Shown one piece after another: positions 47,862 to 62,876 of a stretch of 64,000 bases of DNA. The stretch is from Ignavibacteriota bacterium (GTDB lineage: Bacteria > Bacteroidota > Ignavibacteria > Palsa-1295). The notes below the pieces were generated by a model. The model had not been told where the DNA came from and made no database searches. It worked only from the letters and a program-made list of their open reading frames with translations. How positions within the stretch are numbered: the first letter of the stretch is position 1; every line of letters starts with the position of its first letter. Both the position numbers and the translations under genes were made by a program. The DNA is taken from assembly GCA_963787835.1 (NCBI GenBank), contig CAWBEI010000004.1:288001-352000 (forward strand). The letters run 5' to 3'.

Positions 47862-48977
47862 ATGAGACCTACTCGCGCCGAAATTCAAACAGATTCTTTT
47901 CTCGCTAATCTCCGCCTTGTTCGTAAGCAGATCGGTGAGCGGGCACGTATCATGCCGATCGTGAAAGCGAATGCCTATGGACATGGCCTCGATATTATCG
48001 CAAAAGCAGCTATCCAAAGCGAAGAGATCGACTTCTTCGGTGTAGCGACCGAAGAAGAGGGAATGCGCCTGCGCAGGCTGACTACCCTCCCAATTCTCGT
48101 TCTCACAGGTGCCACGATAGATGACGTCGATACTTTTCTGAATCACCAGCTTGATTTTACGCTTTCGGATTGGGAGACGCTTGCATGTATTGCTGCCCGT
48201 GCTTCTGCAACGGGCATCCGTGCGCGAGTTCATTTGAAAGTCGATACCGGAATGCGGCGTATGGGCGTCGAACCATCAGAAGCGCTCCCATTTCTGCGCG
48301 AGATCGAACAACATTCTGCGAACGTCGAACTTGTCGGACTTTCAACACACTTTGCCACAAGCGATGAACTCGATCAGACTTTTTTTTGCAAACAGATAGC
48401 GGGGTTTGAATCTGTGGTGCGTGAGGCTCGCGGCGCAGGTATTCATATTCCTCTTGTTCATGCTGCAAATAGCGGGGCCATTTTGCAGGCGCCGAAGGAA
48501 TCAGCATTCGACATGGTGCGTCCGGGAATTATGTTGTATGGATATGCCCCGAACATGGAATTGCAAGAGCTTTTTGGAGAAGAACTTCACGCTTGTTTAA
48601 CGCTCGTGAGCACGGTGGTTTTGGTGAAGCAGATCAACGAAGGCGAGGGTGTAAGCTACAATCTTCGCTGGCGTGCCCCGCACCCGACGCGCATCGCGAC
48701 CGTCCCGATCGGTTATGGCGATGGCTATCCGCGCTTGCTCACAGGAAGAGCCTTGGCGATGATTAACGGGAGGATCTATCCTGTCGTTGGCGCGATATGT
48801 ATGGACCAAGTGATGATCGATGTGGGGAATGATGATGTGAAGATCGGTGACCGCGTTGAATTCATCTCAGCGACGAACAGCGAACTGAATGCGTGGTCGC
48901 TTGCGAACATTATCGGAACGATCCCATACGAAATTCTGACTGGTATTGCAGCACGGGTTCCAAGGGTTGCCATATAA
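47862..48977 (+). CDS. alr: Alanine racemase
   Basis: VKANAYGHG, HLKVDTGMRRMG, HAANSG, VRPGIMLYG, IGYGDGYPR, ICMDQ, TIPYEI. Confidence 0.98.
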   Translation: MRPTRAEIQTDSFLANLRLVRKQIGERARIMPIVKANAYGHGLDIIAKAAIQSEEIDFFGVATEEEGMRLRRLTTLPILVLTGATIDDVDTFLNHQLDFTLSDWETLACIAARASATGIRARVHLKVDTGMRRMGVEPSEALPFLREIEQHSANVELVGLSTHFATSDELDQTFFCKQIAGFESVVREARGAGIHIPLVHAANSGAILQAPKESAFDMVRPGIMLYGYAPNMELQELFGEELHACLTLVSTVVLVKQINEGEGVSYNLRWRAPHPTRIATVPIGYGDGYPRLLTGRALAMINGRIYPVVGAICMDQVMIDVGNDDVKIGDRVEFISATNSELNAWSLANIIGTIPYEILTGIAARVPRVAI

Positions 48978-48980
48978 TAC

Positions 48981-49433
48981 ATGGTTCACACTATGAAATG
49001 GATCAGCCGTTCCGAACAACAAACCGTATCCTTTGGCGAGGAATTTGGCAGGCAATACATTCGCGATGGGGTGGTCGTATGTGTGCATGGCGAACTTGGT
49101 GCTGGCAAAACACATTTTATCAAGGGGATCGCAGGTTCGCTTGGGATCGACGAGCGGGAGTTAACCTCGCCCACATTCGCGCTGGCTAATGAATATGAGT
49201 GTTTTAATATCGGTGTACCATTCACGCTGTATCATCTCGATTGCTACCGGTTCGAGAAGCCGGAAGAGTTACTCGAATTAGGAGTGGAGGATTATCTTTA
49301 TCCGCAGCACGCAGCAACGATCATCGAATGGCCGGAGCGGATCATTGGGCTGATTCCGGAGAATGCAATTCATGTGGTCATCGATGTTATTTCCGAAACT
49401 GAGCGGGTTATTGAGGTAAGGGTTAAGAAGTAA
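48981..49433 (+). CDS. tsaE: tRNA t6A ATPase TsaE
   Basis: GELGAGKT, SPTFAL, YHLDCYR, IEWPE. Confidence 0.96.
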   Translation: MVHTMKWISRSEQQTVSFGEEFGRQYIRDGVVVCVHGELGAGKTHFIKGIAGSLGIDERELTSPTFALANEYECFNIGVPFTLYHLDCYRFEKPEELLELGVEDYLYPQHAATIIEWPERIIGLIPENAIHVVIDVISETERVIEVRVKK

Positions 49434-49442
49434 AAATTATCT

Positions 49443-50099
49443 GTGATTTTAGTCCTCGATACATCTAGTTCCCAACTTTCTATCGGCCTATCTACTGCCG
49501 ATGGTACACTATTACGGGAGTTTCACGCGGAGCCAGATGCCGGTGCAGGCGAGCGGACAATTCACGATGCGCGTCTTGCGATCGAGACGTCAAAACTACT
49601 CCAAGCCGAATCTATGCCTGCGGACTCGATCACTCGCATTGGGCTGATCATTGGTCCGGGAAGTTTTACGGGACTCAGGATCGGACTTTCGTTCGCCAAA
49701 GGGTTGGCGTTCGCTACCGGAGCCGGGATAGCGCCACTGACGCTTCACGAAGTGTTACAGGCTGAAGCCAGTGGATTCGATGGGCTGATTGTTACTCCTG
49801 CCTACCGACAGGAGTTGTGCTATGTTTCGGAATCTATTCTTCCAAACGCGATCCAGCTGGTTACCGAGGAGGAGTTTTTGAAGCAATTACCTCGGGAGAT
49901 ACTTGCGCACGATTCCTTTCTGCTTCACGATCAGTCATTTATCCCCCCAACGTCGTCATTTGTATCGCTATCGTTGGCGGCCACGTCCCGTCTGACTGCG
50001 AGATCGTTAGAGGTTACCTTTGGTCCAGCCCTTGATGCGCTGGAGCCTCTTTATCTGACGGAATTTAGTGTTGGAATGCCCACCAAGGCCATAAATTAA
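49443..50099 (+). CDS. tsaB: tRNA t6A subunit TsaB
   Basis: ILVLDTSS, GPGSFTGLRIG, LEPLYL. Confidence 0.92.
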   Translation: MILVLDTSSSQLSIGLSTADGTLLREFHAEPDAGAGERTIHDARLAIETSKLLQAESMPADSITRIGLIIGPGSFTGLRIGLSFAKGLAFATGAGIAPLTLHEVLQAEASGFDGLIVTPAYRQELCYVSESILPNAIQLVTEEEFLKQLPREILAHDSFLLHDQSFIPPTSSFVSLSLAATSRLTARSLEVTFGPALDALEPLYLTEFSVGMPTKAIN

Positions 50100-50148
50100 A
50101 TTTTAGATTAATGGAGTTCCAGACATCGTGATCGGTGTTACTACACTA

Positions 50149-51081
50149 ATGCCTCGAAAGCTTAAGGAAGTATTAAAACCGCGGTCTGCCGCTGAATTGG
50201 TGCAGAGTGCATGCGAGGAGTCCCTTGTATCACTGAAGCGGTATCACGCTGGTGCACTGCGGTCTCAAGCGGAGCCGGTGCATCAGATGCGGATTGGCAC
50301 AAGGCGGCTGCGAGCAATGCTGCGTATCGTTGCCGATGTCATGGATAGTCAATGGGCGGTTGAACTCGACTCCGAATTGCGCTGGCTTGCGCATTTGCTG
50401 GGAGCAGTTCGTGATCTGGATGTGCTCCGCTCGCGCCTGTATGATTCTCTAAAAGCCGGGAATCCCGAGGAACGAGTAACCTTTCGGAATGTTGAACACG
50501 TGCTTATTTCCCGGCATCGCGATGCGAAGGCTGTGATGCTGGAAGGGCTTAAAAGCAAGCGGTATCAAGTATTATTGGAGCGCCTGAGTGCCGGAGCACT
50601 TGCTCCGCAGCTAACGCTGGAAGCGGGTGCATCGGCGCAGGCAGTATTTTTACCGAGGCTCGATCGAGCGTGGAAAAAGCTTTCCCGGGCTGCGGAAAAG
50701 TTGAAGCGATCCGATCCAGCGCCGGAATATCATCGCGTTCGAAAGATGGGAAAACGCATTCGGTATGTCGCCGAGTTACTCTGTTCTGATCTTTCACCGA
50801 AGAACCGCCAGCGAGCTCTGAAATTCATCAATGCGATGAAAAAGATGCAAGATACGCTCGGTGAGTTACAGGACGCGGATGTTGCATCGAAAACACTCAG
50901 GCTTATGTCCGAATTAGAAACAAAGCATCCTGAAGGCCTTCGCGAGCTCATACGAACTCAGGGAAAACTCGAAGAAAAGGCCCGACGCAAGTTTCCAAAA
51001 GTCTGGCAAGCCGCACATGAACTCGGAAACAATAAATGGATGTCGCCGCCAATTAATACCACACAAACACCCTCAACTTAA
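50149..51081 (+). CDS. CHAD domain protein (polyphosphate-binding)
   Basis: VHQMRIGTRRLRA, LGAVRDLDV, YHRVRKMGKRIRY, MQDTLGELQDADV. Confidence 0.93.
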   Translation: MPRKLKEVLKPRSAAELVQSACEESLVSLKRYHAGALRSQAEPVHQMRIGTRRLRAMLRIVADVMDSQWAVELDSELRWLAHLLGAVRDLDVLRSRLYDSLKAGNPEERVTFRNVEHVLISRHRDAKAVMLEGLKSKRYQVLLERLSAGALAPQLTLEAGASAQAVFLPRLDRAWKKLSRAAEKLKRSDPAPEYHRVRKMGKRIRYVAELLCSDLSPKNRQRALKFINAMKKMQDTLGELQDADVASKTLRLMSELETKHPEGLRELIRTQGKLEEKARRKFPKVWQAAHELGNNKWMSPPINTTQTPST

Positions 51082-51168
51082 TCTGATAATGATAATTTAA
51101 CACCCATTCCTACTACATTTGATGTTACAACAAAATATTTTTGCCCAAAGAGGGCTTTTTAGAAGAAC

Positions 51169-51840
51169 ATGATCTCATACGGTGACCATAAATTTCCAGG
51201 GCGGCTCTTTGTCGTTGAAGGTACGGATGGCAGTGGTAAATCCACGCAACTTGCTTTGCTTTATCAGTGGCTGAAGAGTGAAGGCTATCCCGTCATTTTT
51301 TCCGAATGGAATTCCTCACCGCTAGTCATGCAAACGACGAAGCGGGCGAAGAAGAAGACCCTCTTTACTCCAGCAACGTTTTCATTGCTACATGCAACAG
51401 ACTTTGCAGACCGCACAGAACGCGATATTATTCCACCGCTCAAAGCGGGAGCGATCGTGCTGGCGGATCGTTATATTTATACGGCCTTTGCACGCGATGT
51501 CACCCGAGGATGCGACCCCAAATGGGTGCGGCAGATCTATCGCTTTGCAGTCGAGCCAACGGTTCGGTTCTTCTTTCGCGCTCCGCTCGAAGTGGCCTTG
51601 GAACGTATTCTTTCGGGACGACCGGAATTAAAATACTATGAAGCCGGAATGGATCGCGGATTTGCCGATAATGAAGAGGATAGCTTTCGTATCTTTCAAG
51701 GAAAGATCCTCGATGAATACGATAAGATGGTGAGTGAATTCGGGCTTACCGTCATTGATGCAACTCGTTCGATCTTACAGCAGCAGCAAGAAATGCGCAA
51801 GATCATCACTCCACAATTAAAAGGACTCCAGAGGTTTTAA
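51169..51840 (+). CDS. Thymidylate-kinase-like P-loop protein 1
   Basis: VEGTDGSGKST, HATDFADR, ADRYIYTAFARD, LKYYEAGMD. Confidence 0.9.
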   Translation: MISYGDHKFPGRLFVVEGTDGSGKSTQLALLYQWLKSEGYPVIFSEWNSSPLVMQTTKRAKKKTLFTPATFSLLHATDFADRTERDIIPPLKAGAIVLADRYIYTAFARDVTRGCDPKWVRQIYRFAVEPTVRFFFRAPLEVALERILSGRPELKYYEAGMDRGFADNEEDSFRIFQGKILDEYDKMVSEFGLTVIDATRSILQQQQEMRKIITPQLKGLQRF

Positions 51841-52634
51841 ATGACTCCCATGCGATTTTACGGAACCCCTTTACCGGATGTCGATCTCAAGCCGTATCCT
51901 GGTAAACTTATCGTCATTGAAGGCACCGATGGCGTCGGACGCTCCACGCACATCGCGGAACTTCGGACGTGGCTGGAAGCCCAGGGATATGCCGTTGCCG
52001 ATACCGGTATGACTCGTTCTCAACTTGCCGGACAAGGCATCAAGGAGGCGAAAATGGGGCATACGCTTGGAAAGCTGACCATGCAGCTTTTCTATGCAAC
52101 CGACTTTGCCGACCGGCTTGATAACGAGATTATTCCGCCCTCAAAGCGGGTTTTATCGTGCTTACGGATCGCTATGTGTATTCTGCTATTGCACGCGCTG
52201 TCGCGCGGGGTATGGATCCTGAGTGGGTGCGCGACATTTATCGTATATCCGTTGTGCCGGACGCCATTTTTTATCTTCGCATCGATAGTATTTCTGATCT
52301 CGTGCTTCGATTGCTCGAAACCGGCAAAGGCTTCGATTACTGGGAATCTGGAATGGATGTTGGCTTGGGTGAGGATTTTTACGACAGTTTCGTTGCGTAT
52401 CAATCCAAACTATTGAAGGAGTTCGATCGAATGACATCGGAATACGATTTCAAAGTTATTCGTGCCTCTCGTTCAATCGCCCGCGTTTCGGCGGATCTGC
52501 GGCGAGCTGTGACAGCCGTGATCGATGCACCTTCGCTCGAACCGGAAGTCGTCCCGTCACCAAGGCAGATGGCGTCTGCTAACGTGGTAAGAAACAAGCA
52601 GCATGATAATGCTGAATTTCGGGCCGGTGTTTAG
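51841..52634 (+). CDS. Thymidylate-kinase-like P-loop protein 2 (1-nt frameshift near 52138, probably a sequence error)
   Basis: IEGTDGVGRST, YATDFADR; CCG CCC TC AAA GCG lacks one base before LKAGFIVLTDRYVYS; FDYWESGMD. Confidence 0.85.
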
Positions 52635-52649
52635 CGTTGGTTCTATCCA

Positions 52650-54217
52650 ATGAGAGTCGCCGCTGTAGATATTGGTTCGAATTCGATCAAGTTGCTCGTT
52701 GCGGAGACGGCTGCGAACGGTGCTCTATTGCCGCTCCGCAGAGAAAAATCTATGGTTCGTCTCGGTCATGAAACGCTGCTTAAAGGACATCTTTCGAGCG
52801 AGGCGATTGTCCAGGCCATTCGGACACTGAGTGTCTTTAAGACGCTCGCTCAAAATCTCGGAGCCGAGCAGATCATTGCCGTTGCGACGGCTTCCGTGCG
52901 TGAAGCAGACAATGCGCAAGCCTTTATTCGGGAAGTGGAGAGCCGCACAGGCATTCGTATTGAGGTGCTTTCTGGAATTGAGGAGGCAAGATTGATCGGG
53001 GTAGCGGCCGCTCGTGCAAGCGCCGTCAAGCCTCAATCACAAGGAAAAAGTCTTTTAAATATCGATGTTGGTGGTGGCTCGACCGAATTATCGTTGATGC
53101 GAGGCTCTAAGGCCATTAAGCTCGAATCGATGAAGATCGGGGCGGTACGGTTGTCAGAACAGTTTCTCAGTTCCGATCCACCGAAGCCGAAGGAACTTCT
53201 CGCAATGCAACGGGAGATCGAGGGTGCGCTCGAACGCCCCATGCGGGAAATGAAAGGTGAAAAATGGGGCATGGTCACCGGGACTTCTGGAACTATCCTT
53301 TCGATCGGAGCGGCCTTTCAATCCCTGGCGTACCCGGATAATGAATCGATCCCGGATGCGCGTGCCTCGCGCCAACTGCCAACCGTTACGATGACCCGAA
53401 GTGCTCTTTCCGAATTCAATCAGCATTTGGCCTCGCTTTCGCTTGCGGAGCGCAAGAAAATTCGTGGTATTTCGGAGCAGCGTGCCGAGATCATCGTGGC
53501 CGGCGGCAGATCATCGAACAGATCATGCATGCTTTCAAGATCGCTCGGATCACCACCTGCGATTGGGGCCTTCGCGAAGGAGTATTGCTCGATCGGCTTT
53601 CCGAGTGGAACGGAGTTCGCGCCACACGATCCAAGGAACTGGATGCGCGTCTTGCAGGGGCTGAGGCGTTAGGTGAGCGATTTGGCTACGAGGCTACGCA
53701 TGGAAAGCATGTCTCGAAGTTAGCGACAGAGCTCTTCGATCAAATACGATCCTTACATGGCCTGAAGCTCCATGACCGCACCTTGTTGGCCGCTGCTTCG
53801 ATCCTTCATGATATTGGTTATGCCATCTCGCCGGAATCGCATCACAAGCACTCACTGTACCTTATCCAGAACTCCGAATTGACGGGGTTCACAGATCTTG
53901 AACGGCAGGTCATTGCGAATATTGCGCGCTATCATCGTCGTGCCTTTCCAAAGCCAACGCATGACTCATTCAATAGTCTGAGCTTAGAAGATCAGAGCCG
54001 GGTCTGGATGTTGGGAGGTATTCTTCGTTTGGCGGACGCGATGGACCGTAGCCATGAATCGCGCATCAAAAATTTTAAGGCTGTGCTCCGCGCCGGTAAT
54101 ATCCGTCTCGCACTTCATAGTTCCAGACGGTGCGATCATGAAATATGGGCCATCGAACATAAGAAGGATATGTTCGAGGAAGCCTTCGGAGTAACTGTTC
54201 AATTGGTTACCGACTAA
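52650..54217 (+). CDS. ppx: Ppx/GppA exopolyphosphatase with HD domain (1-nt frameshift near 53505)
   Basis: AAVDIGSNS, VATASVREA, EEARL, IDVGGGSTE, RAEIIVAG / WGLREGVL, LHDIG, HHKHS, RLADAMDRSH. Confidence 0.9.
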
Positions 54218-54567
54218 GTATGTGTTCTCGCCTTCTTTTGTGCTACCACCCAGAGCCAAACCCCCGAACCTGCAAAAACGAATGACATCAGGCCGATACC
54301 AAGGAATCCAATAAGAGTATAGATCACATTTTGGAGTCCTGTAACATGGCTGCCACCTGACATATTGGAGAACGGTAGCAGCCCCGGAGAAAAATCATCC
54401 ACCCACTTCTGGGTTGTCACCGTAGTGCCGAACAGCTCGTCAGTAGTTTTTACCTCTACCATGGTTTGAGTTGTGGTCCAAAAATGATGGCCGATCGCAA
54501 ACCACCAAATGAGCAGAGCCGCAGCGATCGCAATGAAGAGAAAAGAGAGGTAGTGTCTGGATGTCAT
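54214..54567 (-). CDS. Small two-TM membrane protein
   Basis: Two hydrophobic segments flanking TDELFGTT...WVDDFSPGL. Confidence 0.7.
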   Translation of the reverse strand: MTSRHYLSFLFIAIAAALLIWWFAIGHHFWTTTQTMVEVKTTDELFGTTVTTQKWVDDFSPGLLPFSNMSGGSHVTGLQNVIYTLIGFLGIGLMSFVFAGSGVWLWVVAQKKARTHT

Positions 54568-60699: not shown

Positions 60700-61728
60700 A
60701 TGGCTTTCGATTCCTCAAAATACTCCATGGTAAAAGAAAACGTCGGATTATTCGACGCTTCGAATACTTATGGCCGACTTTTTGCAAAAGGCAAGGATGC
60801 GATCGACCTGCTGCACCGCATGTCCACAAACGATATGAAACCGCTTGAAGAGGCTATACCTCAAGCAGCGATTACGGTACTGACGAATGAAAAGGGGCGA
60901 TTCATCGATGTGCTAAAGGTGGTTCGTGATGGCAAGGGAGATGTTATACTTATCACGAGCAAGGGATTGGAAGAAACCGCCATTCGCTGGCTTGATAAGT
61001 TTACGATTATGGAGGACGCGCGATTTGAGCCTGCGACCGACAAGATCGTGCAATTCCTTATCTGTGGGCCTAATGCAACGGCAGTAGTTAGCCAATATGC
61101 TGGTCAGAATTTGAGAGAAGCCTCACGCGCCAGCGTTTTTGATCTGCAAATTGAGTCCATTCATGCTACGTTGGTAAAAGCTCCGAGCCTTGCTGGGAAT
61201 GGCTGGTTTATTCTAACGGCTTCCGATGCCGCTTCCAAAGTTTGGAGCAAACTTGAAACGGACGTTCTGGTCCATGATGGAGTGATTTTGGATTCCGAGC
61301 TTTTTGAAGTGTTACGAATCGAGAATGGAACCCCGATGGCCCCGAATGAAATAAATGACAAACATAATCCACTGGAACTCAAACTCGCTTCGGAAGCGGT
61401 AAGCTTCACGAAAGGCTGCTACATTGGCCAGGAAGTGATCGCTCGTCTCGACGCGCAAAATAAAGTTCAGCGGCAATTAGTAGGTTTGAAATTCGGAGAT
61501 CAGATGCCGCATGTTGGCGATAGGATCTCGGATGAATCGCTAATTGGAACTCCGCTTGGAGATGAAATTGGGGAAATTACAAGTCTTGCAAGTTCACCTG
61601 CGAACGGTAATATCGGATTGGGTTATGTGCGGGCTAAATATGCGAATCCCGGCACGATTGTTTCCGTAAAAGATAGCAAGGACAATACCGTGCCCGCAAC
61701 ACTCGTTCAATTGCCATTTCATGTCTGA
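60700..61728 (+). CDS. YgfZ/GcvT-like folate-binding protein
   Basis: SFTKGCYIGQEVIARL signature. Confidence 0.92.
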   Translation: MAFDSSKYSMVKENVGLFDASNTYGRLFAKGKDAIDLLHRMSTNDMKPLEEAIPQAAITVLTNEKGRFIDVLKVVRDGKGDVILITSKGLEETAIRWLDKFTIMEDARFEPATDKIVQFLICGPNATAVVSQYAGQNLREASRASVFDLQIESIHATLVKAPSLAGNGWFILTASDAASKVWSKLETDVLVHDGVILDSELFEVLRIENGTPMAPNEINDKHNPLELKLASEAVSFTKGCYIGQEVIARLDAQNKVQRQLVGLKFGDQMPHVGDRISDESLIGTPLGDEIGEITSLASSPANGNIGLGYVRAKYANPGTIVSVKDSKDNTVPATLVQLPFHV

Positions 61729-62876
61729 TATTCTGGAACTCGATGTAGTAGAAAACCCACTCCTTTTCAAGGAGGGGGAAGGGGGCGGTCTTGTTGCTGA
61801 AACAACTTCTGAAGAAGTGATACGCAGCATTCACTTGTTGAAAGATGAGTTGCGCGACAGGATCGTTATTCTCGGGCACCATTATCAGAGGGACGACATT
61901 ATCCAGTTCGCTGACCGGATGGGCGATTCCTTCGAGCTTTCCCGGTTTGCGTCGGAACTTCACGACCGGGAATTCATCATTTTCTGTGGCGTCCATTTTA
62001 TGGCTGAAACGGCGGACGTTTTGAGCGCGCCGCACCAGAAAGTAATCCTTCCCGACCTCAAAGCTGGTTGCTCGATGAGCGATATGGCCCGTGTGGAGCA
62101 GGTGCTCGATGTGTGGGATGAAATAGGGGGATATATCGATACGAAAAAAGTTTGCCCGATAACGTATATGAATTCCAGTGCCGCGATAAAAGCATTTTGC
62201 GGCGAGCATGGTGGCGCTGTTTCAACAGAGTTCCAACAATCGAGCGATCTTTCAGTGGGCGTTCGATCAGGGATTTGAAAAAGTATTCTTTTTCCCGGAC
62301 CAACATCTGGGGCGAAATACTGCATATTATCAGATGGGAATTCCGTTGGAGGAGATCAAGCTTTACGATCAAACCGCTCCGCTGGGAGGGCTAAGTCCAG
62401 CAGAATTAATAAATGCAAAGATTTTGCTTTGGCGCGGACATTGTTCTGTCCATCAGCATTTTCAGGCTTCGCATCCAAATATCATGCGTGCGCTGTATCC
62501 CGGCATTCAGGTGATGGTGCATCCCGAATGCAATTTCGAAGTGGTTCGGCAAGCCGATAAAGTCGGTTCGACGTCCTACATCATGAAGACGGTGGATACT
62601 GCTCCAGCGGGAAGTAAATGGGCCATTGGAACAGAGCATCATCTTGTTAATAGATTGAAGAAAGACCATCCGGAACAGTTCATTACCACGCTTGCGCCTT
62701 ATGCGTGCGAATGCGCAACTATGTATCGTATCTCGCCCGAATCCCTGCTGGATATTTTGGTGAATTTGAAGCAAGGTATTGTAATAAATCAGATCGTCGT
62801 TTCGGATTCGGAGAAAAAATGGGCGCATGTTGCGCTGGAGCGTATGTTGGAGATAACGAGTCGTGACCGAACATAA
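61721..62876 (+). CDS. nadA: Quinolinate synthase (frameshift near 62225, probably a sequence error)
   Basis: ILGHHYQR, FCGVHFMAETA, AGCSMSDMA, TYMNSSA / FPDQHLGRN, GHCSVH, HPEC, GSTSYI, GTEHHL, CECATM. Confidence 0.93.

Follow-up and report, generated by a model that had tools for sequence, protein, structure and literature searches.

A CHAD-ppx gene cluster with a predicted PPK3-type polyphosphate kinase pair in an Ignavibacteriota bacterium

The DNA analyzed here (the window) is a stretch of 64,000 nucleotides from an Ignavibacteriota bacterium, positions 288,001 to 352,000 of contig CAWBEI010000004.1. It contains a CHAD-domain gene, two abutting genes of the thymidylate kinase (TMK) fold, termed gene A and gene B in the following, and an exopolyphosphatase gene (ppx). 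The two TMK-fold genes very probably encode a polyphosphate (polyP) kinase of the PPK3 type. The complete reading, in which the four-gene cluster is a bacterial polyP operon with A as the catalytic subunit of PPK3 and B as its activating partner, was given a probability of about 0.72. The PPK3 system and predicted bacterial members have already been published; new here are the lineage, a partner subunit with an intact DRY motif, and the exclusion of PPK1, but not of PPK2, from genomes carrying the pair.

All four genes are located on the plus strand in the order CHAD-A-B-ppx (Table 1), and the stop codon of A touches the start codon of B with a 0-nt gap (TTTTAA, then ATG at 51841). The motif ATDFADR is found in both A and B; a second motif reads YYEAGMD in A versus YWESGMD in B, and the P-loop GSGKST in A versus GVGRST in B. 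Both the arrangement, confirmed by Pfam matches, and these motifs are as an earlier note on this DNA had described them. The ppx product was also matched by TIGR03706 (E-value 1.2e-69), yet under the cut-off of that profile.

PPK3 was described as a heteromeric polyP kinase from Sulfolobus acidocaldarius (SaPPK3; Hofmann et al., J Biol Chem 2026; PMC12995831; preprint 10.1101/2024.08.28.610084). According to PMC12995831, its subunits Saci_2019 and Saci_2020 are two ‘thymidylate kinases’ encoded within a sixA-ppx-TMK-TMK-CHAD operon. Saci_2019 (cPPK3) is catalytic, and Saci_2020 (rPPK3) is inactive alone and boosts the activity about 6-10-fold; the complex is α2β2 and acts reversibly. Saci_2019/2020 yielded no dTDP, and a third S. 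acidocaldarius gene is the real dTMP kinase (PMC12995831). The earlier note had proposed a heterodimeric polyP:nucleotide phosphotransferase, not a dTMP kinase, for a pair to which it could assign no known biochemical function. By analogy, the archaeal biochemistry supports the phosphotransferase; the archaeal complex is indeed heteromeric but no simple heterodimer, and a function for such pairs had already been published.

Gene A is predicted to encode the catalytic-type subunit. Its best match in the PDB was 2plr/5h70, the Sulfolobus tokodaii protein ST1543 (STK_15430), with an E-value of 4.8e-55, followed by canonical TMK at 4.4e-15. The identity of A to archaeal catalytic subunits is 42-46% overall, 46% to the Sulfolobales cPPK3 of locus L131, versus 30% over 160 residues to rPPK3 and 26% to the genome’s own tmk. 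Motif states were read from 90 A rows and 82 B rows in one alignment, the window’s own included, and compared with seven tmk rows and with two catalytic and two regulatory Sulfolobales rows. The alignment was drawn from 93 loci, with two duplicates, split or short open reading frames (ORFs) and four rows missing the P-loop pattern omitted. At the Walker position this pattern permitted just K or R; two of the dropped rows, L016 and L076, are plainly of the B type and have Arg there. The two Sulfolobales-type loci (L130, L131) show the five-gene PPK3 operon as in S. acidocaldarius and were found by a DNA pattern scan of metagenomes, which gave three loci, i.e., these two and the chance match L132. 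Scanning metagenomes for a protein pattern with P0138 gave no match.

A has in common with cPPK3 the motifs GSGKS-Q, EWNSS, AKKK (a KK run), HATD, DRY and RD, as well as K/E in the lid. The REP motif of canonical thymidylate kinases is present in all seven tmk rows; it reads EWN instead in all 90 A rows and is of the GMT type in B. Lys61, His75, Arg82, Arg101, Arg109, Asp110 and Lys155 are invariant in the 90 A rows and in both cPPK3s. The P-loop lysine, the DRX arginine and the residues of a candidate basic cleft (K24, R101, K61, R82, R109, R113 and K155) are likewise found in 90/90 A rows and in the two Sulfolobales cPPK3s.

Gene B differs from A at positions where archaeal rPPK3 does: Tyr75 is present in all 82 B rows, Asp155 in 76, Gly46 in 71 and His27 in 51, and Asp110 is missing. 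The basic run is broken by Gly63 (82/82); K62, K63 and K155 of A are lost, whereas R82, R109 and R113 are kept. Arg replaces the Walker-A lysine in every B row, and the same Arg occurs in one of the two archaeal rPPK3s (L130). Replacement of the DRX arginine, a trait of rPPK3, is seen as DGY in the two Sulfolobales sequences; B has DRY in the window and in 82/82 rows. Because this arginine is retained, B was called rPPK3-like in role but outside the archaeal motif definition. For the same reason, the lost DRX arginine to which the inactivity of rPPK3 is ascribed in PMC12995831 cannot account for an inactive bacterial B. Judged from these motif states, B would be a regulatory subunit silenced by its P-loop and cleft changes; the alignment and trees of PMC12995831 may already display the bacterial states. 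A structure model of B from a 94.5%-identical relative (predicted local distance difference test score 92) had the S. tokodaii protein as its top fold match, with a template-modelling score of 0.80-0.82.

The source genome comprises 3.57 Mb in 7 contigs and is 97.9% complete. A separate canonical tmk, for which the earlier note had advised a check, is present at G000:C2:562212-562781 (PF02223, E-value 1.1e-50) and has the REP motif. No PPK1 was found in the genome search of this assembly; PPK2 is present as a separate 288-amino-acid gene on contig C2, the sole PF03976 match. A fifth PF02223 match (C3:24303) was considered and rejected as PPK3, as by eye it resembles a deoxynucleoside kinase next to folK. 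The genome further contains another ppx/gppA-like gene at G000:C2:403786-404664 (29% identity) and, at C2:1501107-1501586, one like sixA.

The set of related genomes consisted of 41 assemblies, several of them incomplete: the source, 14 of the same genus, 10 of the same family and 16 of the same class. The pair was found in 17 and PPK1 in 18 of them, and no genome carries both, which is the anticorrelation anticipated earlier. Within the family, 17 genomes with the pair stand against seven with PPK1, and one has neither. The exclusion is given as a plain count, since the genomes are kin and several are incomplete. The pattern suggests that the task of PPK1, which usually makes polyP, is taken over by PPK3; we infer such a replacement since the genomes with the pair lack PPK1 and mostly have PPK2. 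In this functional sense the pair does occupy the ‘ppk slot’ proposed before, whereas in position it does not: in five same-family genomes, ppk1 lies near a clpP/trigger-factor-like or an acyl-CoA-ligase-like gene (by eye, from ORF starts), and inspection found no CHAD- or ppx-like ORF beside it. An in-place replacement of ppk1 by the pair is thus unsupported, the ppk1 of these relatives being situated away from the CHAD-ppx locus. In PMC12995831, the majority of PPK3 genomes are said to have neither PPK1 nor PPK2, and its Data S1 also includes genomes with PPK1, PPK2 and PPK3 together.

All trees were quick trees with just 4-7 tmk rows, all from relatives of the source genome. A, B and the two archaeal c and two r rows were placed on one side versus canonical tmk, with a support of 100 in the Shimodaira-Hasegawa-like approximate likelihood-ratio test (SH-aLRT). 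In one tree, B was nested with archaeal rPPK3 at support 96, but on a very long branch (3.8). Both A and B of the source genus grouped with Pyrinomonadaceae (SH-aLRT 97-99), apart from the more distant A-B pair that three further genera of the family carry (L125, L126 and L127, of genomes G021, G018 and G017), with 57-58% identity to the window’s A. Neither ppx nor CHAD was present within the fetched stretches of these three loci. Holding all family rows together was rejected in the approximately unbiased (AU) test with p = 0.009, for a group picked after seeing a tree. Since a single family grouping was rejected, the family likely gained PPK3 twice; the placement beside Pyrinomonadaceae would reflect horizontal transfer between that family and the source genus.

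The proposed mechanism follows SaPPK3. Gene A would encode the catalytic subunit, and B a non-catalytic partner activating A through complex formation, presumably in a heterotetramer as in the archaeon. Phosphate would be moved reversibly between ATP/ADP, bound by the P-loop and lid of A, and the end of a polyP chain, which would lie in a basic cleft taking the place of the dTMP pocket. Binding of the polyP would fall to CHAD and its breakdown to Ppx, the four genes probably being co-transcribed. In the cell, the reaction would run in the direction of a polyP-making, energy-buffering kinase in place of PPK1. Binding of B to A is suggested by analogy, by the abutment of the genes and by the natural A+B fusion P0001.

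Several points weigh against this reading. According to PMC12995831, SaPPK3 favours making ATP out of ADP plus polyP 50-fold in vitro, which does not argue for a role in polyP synthesis, and the archaeal enzyme produced polyP only with ATP recycling, which speaks against a stand-in for PPK1. Of the 17 pair-carrying genomes, 15 also have PPK2, unlike the majority described in PMC12995831, and among 41 kindred genomes the exclusion of PPK1 amounts to few independent events. Arg82, the arginine of DRY and Arg109 are all retained by B (82/82 rows), where archaeal rPPK3 has Gln, Gly and Trp. Moreover, B is nearer to archaeal cPPK3 (35% identity, E-value 1e-36) than to rPPK3 (27%, 4e-32), and with a second tree the AU tests rejected none of the groupings compared (p = 0.71 for B with r, 0.50 for A with B and 0.36 for c with r). 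Each of the frame corrections given below relies on one near-identical contig, two of the three at a depth below 5. Finally, no assay of a bacterial PPK3 was found in the literature searched on PPK3 and TMK-CHAD-Ppx, a search mostly outside subscription journals.

The best surviving alternative, though quite unlikely, concerns the partner: B might keep a working second site, e.g., for a different nucleotide or AMP, so that PPK3 would be a complex with two unlike active sites. The arginine of the catalytic DRX motif is one of a larger set of B invariants, comprising GVGR(S/T)T, TRS, D-R-Y, Arg82, Arg109, Arg113, Arg146 and WE-G-D, and A and B have remained more similar to each other (42.5% identity) than the archaeal c and r subunits (28%). 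Such conservation could equally serve ligand binding or a subunit interface. A change of the Walker-A lysine to arginine usually reduces phosphoryl transfer, and here it is fixed in all B rows and present in one archaeal rPPK3 as well. B is also without the invariant Lys155, Asp110 and His75 of A and without most of its basic run. A wider combination is unlikely, too: a two-active-site bacterial PPK3, in which B (GVGR, intact DRY) is catalytic or ligand-sensing, as the principal polyP-making enzyme in many Kapabacteria, Acidobacteriota and Chloroflexota of soils that are without PPK1, with the copy of the source genus shared with Pyrinomonadaceae by horizontal transfer.

Compared with a PPK3 that uses ADP, a polyP-linked kinase with another acceptor (AMP, GDP or another nucleotide) is very unlikely. 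An identity of just 42-46% to the archaeal catalytic subunit would leave room for it, most pair-carrying genomes already have a PPK2, and SaPPK3 itself takes GDP weakly (PMC12995831). The motifs common to A and cPPK3, however, span the P-loop, DRX and lid regions, and the exclusion of PPK1 points to a PPK1-like job.

The assembly divides both gene B and ppx between two frames (ORFs 51841-52416 and 52158-52634 for B, 52650-53672 and 53525-54217 for ppx), which the earlier note had missed. Near-identical short-read contigs restore one base at each of three sites (Table 1). The runs concerned, X1 and X2, come from a single study and possibly derive from the source sample; they therefore test the assembly and not the distribution of the operon. 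The base after 52136 also occurs in contigs of X5 and X6, which are more distant, and that after 53506 in X5, and every relative aligned over 52136 and 53506 has the extra base. Gene B is an open frame of 267-313 amino acids in 13 of 14 same-genus genomes, and ppx is a single open frame of 519-581 amino acids in loci L117-L124. Because near-identical contigs and relatives carry the base, the three drops are likely assembly (sequencing) errors. The stop codon of B (52604-52606) was derived by hand.

Table 1. Features of the polyP gene cluster and single-base drops, in positions of the window
Feature	Position	Strand	Support
CHAD-domain protein (polyP-binding family), ~310 amino acids	ATG 50149, stop 51081	+	PF05235, E-value 1.7e-46
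Gene A, TMK fold, cPPK3-like, 223 amino acids	51169..51840	+	PF02223, E-value 2.4e-20
Gene B, TMK fold, rPPK3-like position, ~255 amino acids read through	51841..52606	+	PF02223 on both pieces
ppx/gppA exopolyphosphatase with C-terminal HD domain	52650..54217	+	PF02541, E-value 1.9e-53; PF21447, E-value 1.8e-32
Single-base drop breaking gene B	52136..52137		X2 contig 52067-52216: 0 other letters, 1 gap, depth 3.1
Single-base drop, gene B tail	52582..52583		X2 contig 52525-52881: 0 other letters, 1 gap, depth 5.8
Single-base drop breaking ppx	53506..53507		X1 contig 53148-53602: 0 other letters, 1 gap, depth 3.8

That the frameshifts instead mark an operon in decay, with gene B and ppx as true pseudogenes, is highly improbable. 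Two broken genes in one operon would fit such a decay, as would the same-genus genome G003 (99% complete), in which the pair is missing. The contigs restoring all three bases have no other differences, however, B is intact in nearly all same-genus genomes, and G001, another few-contig assembly, has its single-base breaks in A and CHAD instead. In G003 (L144), tsaE-tsaB is followed by an unrelated gene, and neither PPK1 nor PPK2 was matched.

Extra ATP-dependent thymidylate kinases, as automatic annotation would have one or both genes, are extremely improbable: PF02223 is above its cut-off and the deposited S. tokodaii homologue bears the name ‘dTMP kinase’, but TIGR00041 scores 79.3 bits (E-value 2.9e-22) under a cut-off of 83.25, the REP motif is missing, a canonical tmk is located elsewhere in the genome, the S. 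tokodaii assay tracked only ADP formation (preprint 10.1101/2024.08.28.610084), and the Saci_2019/2020 proteins made no dTDP (PMC12995831).

When each species was represented by a single genome, a scan turned up at least 593 stretches that encode relatives, and so PPK3 looks commoner in soil bacteria than ‘a few bacteria’ implies. The following locus counts refer to the best 80. In 77 of these loci, B comes directly after A on the same strand, an arrangement not due to chance; two of the other three stop at a contig edge, and the third, on a Melainabacteria contig (L079:707-1450), has an A-type gene with no adjacent B despite about 3.5 kb of downstream DNA. A ppx or CHAD gene lies within 5 kb in 48/80 loci, many of which are short contigs. 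Among the matches listed, the closest named ones were Candidatus Kapaibacterium and a Bacteroidetes metagenome-assembled genome (87-88%), then Pyrinomonadaceae (about 80%), and Chloroflexota and deltaproteobacteria (65-70%). Two Kapabacteria genomes among the matches listed in Data S1 of PMC12995831 have PPK3 = 0, and the lineage is thus not flagged there.

Natural fusions were also found, of which those of A with B and those with Ppx-HD, NUDIX, pyrophosphatase and SPX domains count in favour of the PPK3 reading. In Alicyclobacillus (P0001, P0165 and P0166), A and B are fused in one protein of 460 amino acids, the second domain of which has a degenerate P-loop and keeps DRY; this single-chain PPK3 would be handy for assays. 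In P0005, P0018 (from Ignavibacteria), P0020 and P0109, a PPK3-like domain is joined to another TMK-like domain and to the HD domain of a Ppx. NUDIX-PPK3 fusions are P0115, P0135 and P0136. In P0034, P0099 and P0132, the PPK3-like domain is part of very large proteins with an inorganic pyrophosphatase, one of them also with ART-PolyVal, which is typical of mobile-element polyvalent proteins. PPK3-like domains fused to DUF2252/APH occur in eight proteins (P0045, P0049, P0073, P0077, P0087, P0092, P0095 and P0140), six of which also contain an MFS transporter. Regarding the MFS-PPK3-DUF2252 fusions as eukaryotic SPX-MFS proteins was rejected: no SPX domain was matched at an E-value of 0.1 in the eight proteins, and the two that are named belong to Elusimicrobiota.

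An SPX domain (E-value 2.1e-10) is fused to a PPK3-like and a DUF2252/APH kinase-like domain in P0031, a protein of 794 amino acids from the protist Ancoracysta twista (EukProt transcriptome). Its PPK3-like domain is of the catalytic type, with GSGKSTQ, RWNSS, DRY and RD. P0031 is a candidate for a eukaryotic, phosphate-regulated PPK3, a single sequence which may be contamination. SPX is not mentioned in the main text of PMC12995831, and a literature search for SPX, thymidylate kinase and polyphosphate gave nothing related. An atlas search with P0031 likewise had no usable match.

Upstream of the cluster, an alanine racemase gene (named by inspection), tsaE and tsaB occupy 47862-50099 on the same strand and end 49 bases before CHAD; transcripts of this housekeeping cluster may read through into the polyP operon. 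The CHAD start codon aligns with the starts in same-genus relatives. A candidate extra base at about 51045, a site spanned by none of the listed short-read contigs, would alter just the last ~12 residues of CHAD. Scanning 49900-54400 gave 6 promoter-like and 5 terminator-like sites versus 4.3 and 5.3 expected by chance, which is uninformative on transcription. Contigs of a relative in the metatranscriptome X6 (share 0.09, 85-99% alike) span the operon; contigs as such cannot demonstrate transcription. Elsewhere in the window, an ORF which we take to be nadA-like (61721-62278) terminates early with an odd tail, probably due to a further single-base assembly error.

Compared with known systems, A and B share with canonical thymidylate kinase (TIGR00041) the fold, the P-loop as well as the DRX motif, but are without the REP motif and the dTMP-pocket residues and have only 24-26% identity to the genome’s own tmk. 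With PPK2 (PF03976), the P-loop fold and polyP-nucleotide phosphotransfer would be common, and class II two-domain PPK2 enzymes pair an active with an inactive module, a comparison drawn in PMC12995831; the A and B pieces, however, have no PF03976 match at an E-value of 0.01, and PPK2 is a separate gene in this genome. S. tokodaii ST1543/STK_15430 (PDB 2plr, 4nzy, 4rzx and 5h70, deposited as dTMP kinase) is the best match of both the A sequence and the B-model fold and is a cPPK3 homologue according to PMC12995831; in contrast to the window’s pair it is archaeal, and it was crystallized without a partner subunit, judging by the entry titles. Predicted bacterial PPK3s are known from Blastocatellia and Ktedonobacteria: in the rows listed in Data S1 of PMC12995831, 10/10 Blastocatellia (Chloracidobacterium) and 2/3 Ktedonobacteria are PPK3-positive, and A and B of the window cluster with Pyrinomonadaceae, which belong to Blastocatellia.

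SaPPK3 and the cluster of the window have in common adjacent TMK-fold paralogues with the catalytic type first, an operon with ppx and CHAD, a canonical tmk elsewhere, no PPK1, the loss of dTMP-site residues, and the catalytic-subunit motifs. They differ in the bacterial host, in gene order (CHAD-A-B-ppx versus sixA-ppx-c-r-CHAD), in the sixA-like gene, which here is on another contig, in the HD domain of Ppx, in the retained DRX arginine and invariant Walker-A Arg of the bacterial B, and in the additional PPK2 gene. The annotation ‘thymidylate kinase’ is thereby corrected for two genes, and the lineage gains a likely PPK1-free route to polyP. This bacterial form departs from the 2026 archaeal description twice: its partner subunit still has the catalytic arginine of DRX, and a PPK2 is usually found alongside.

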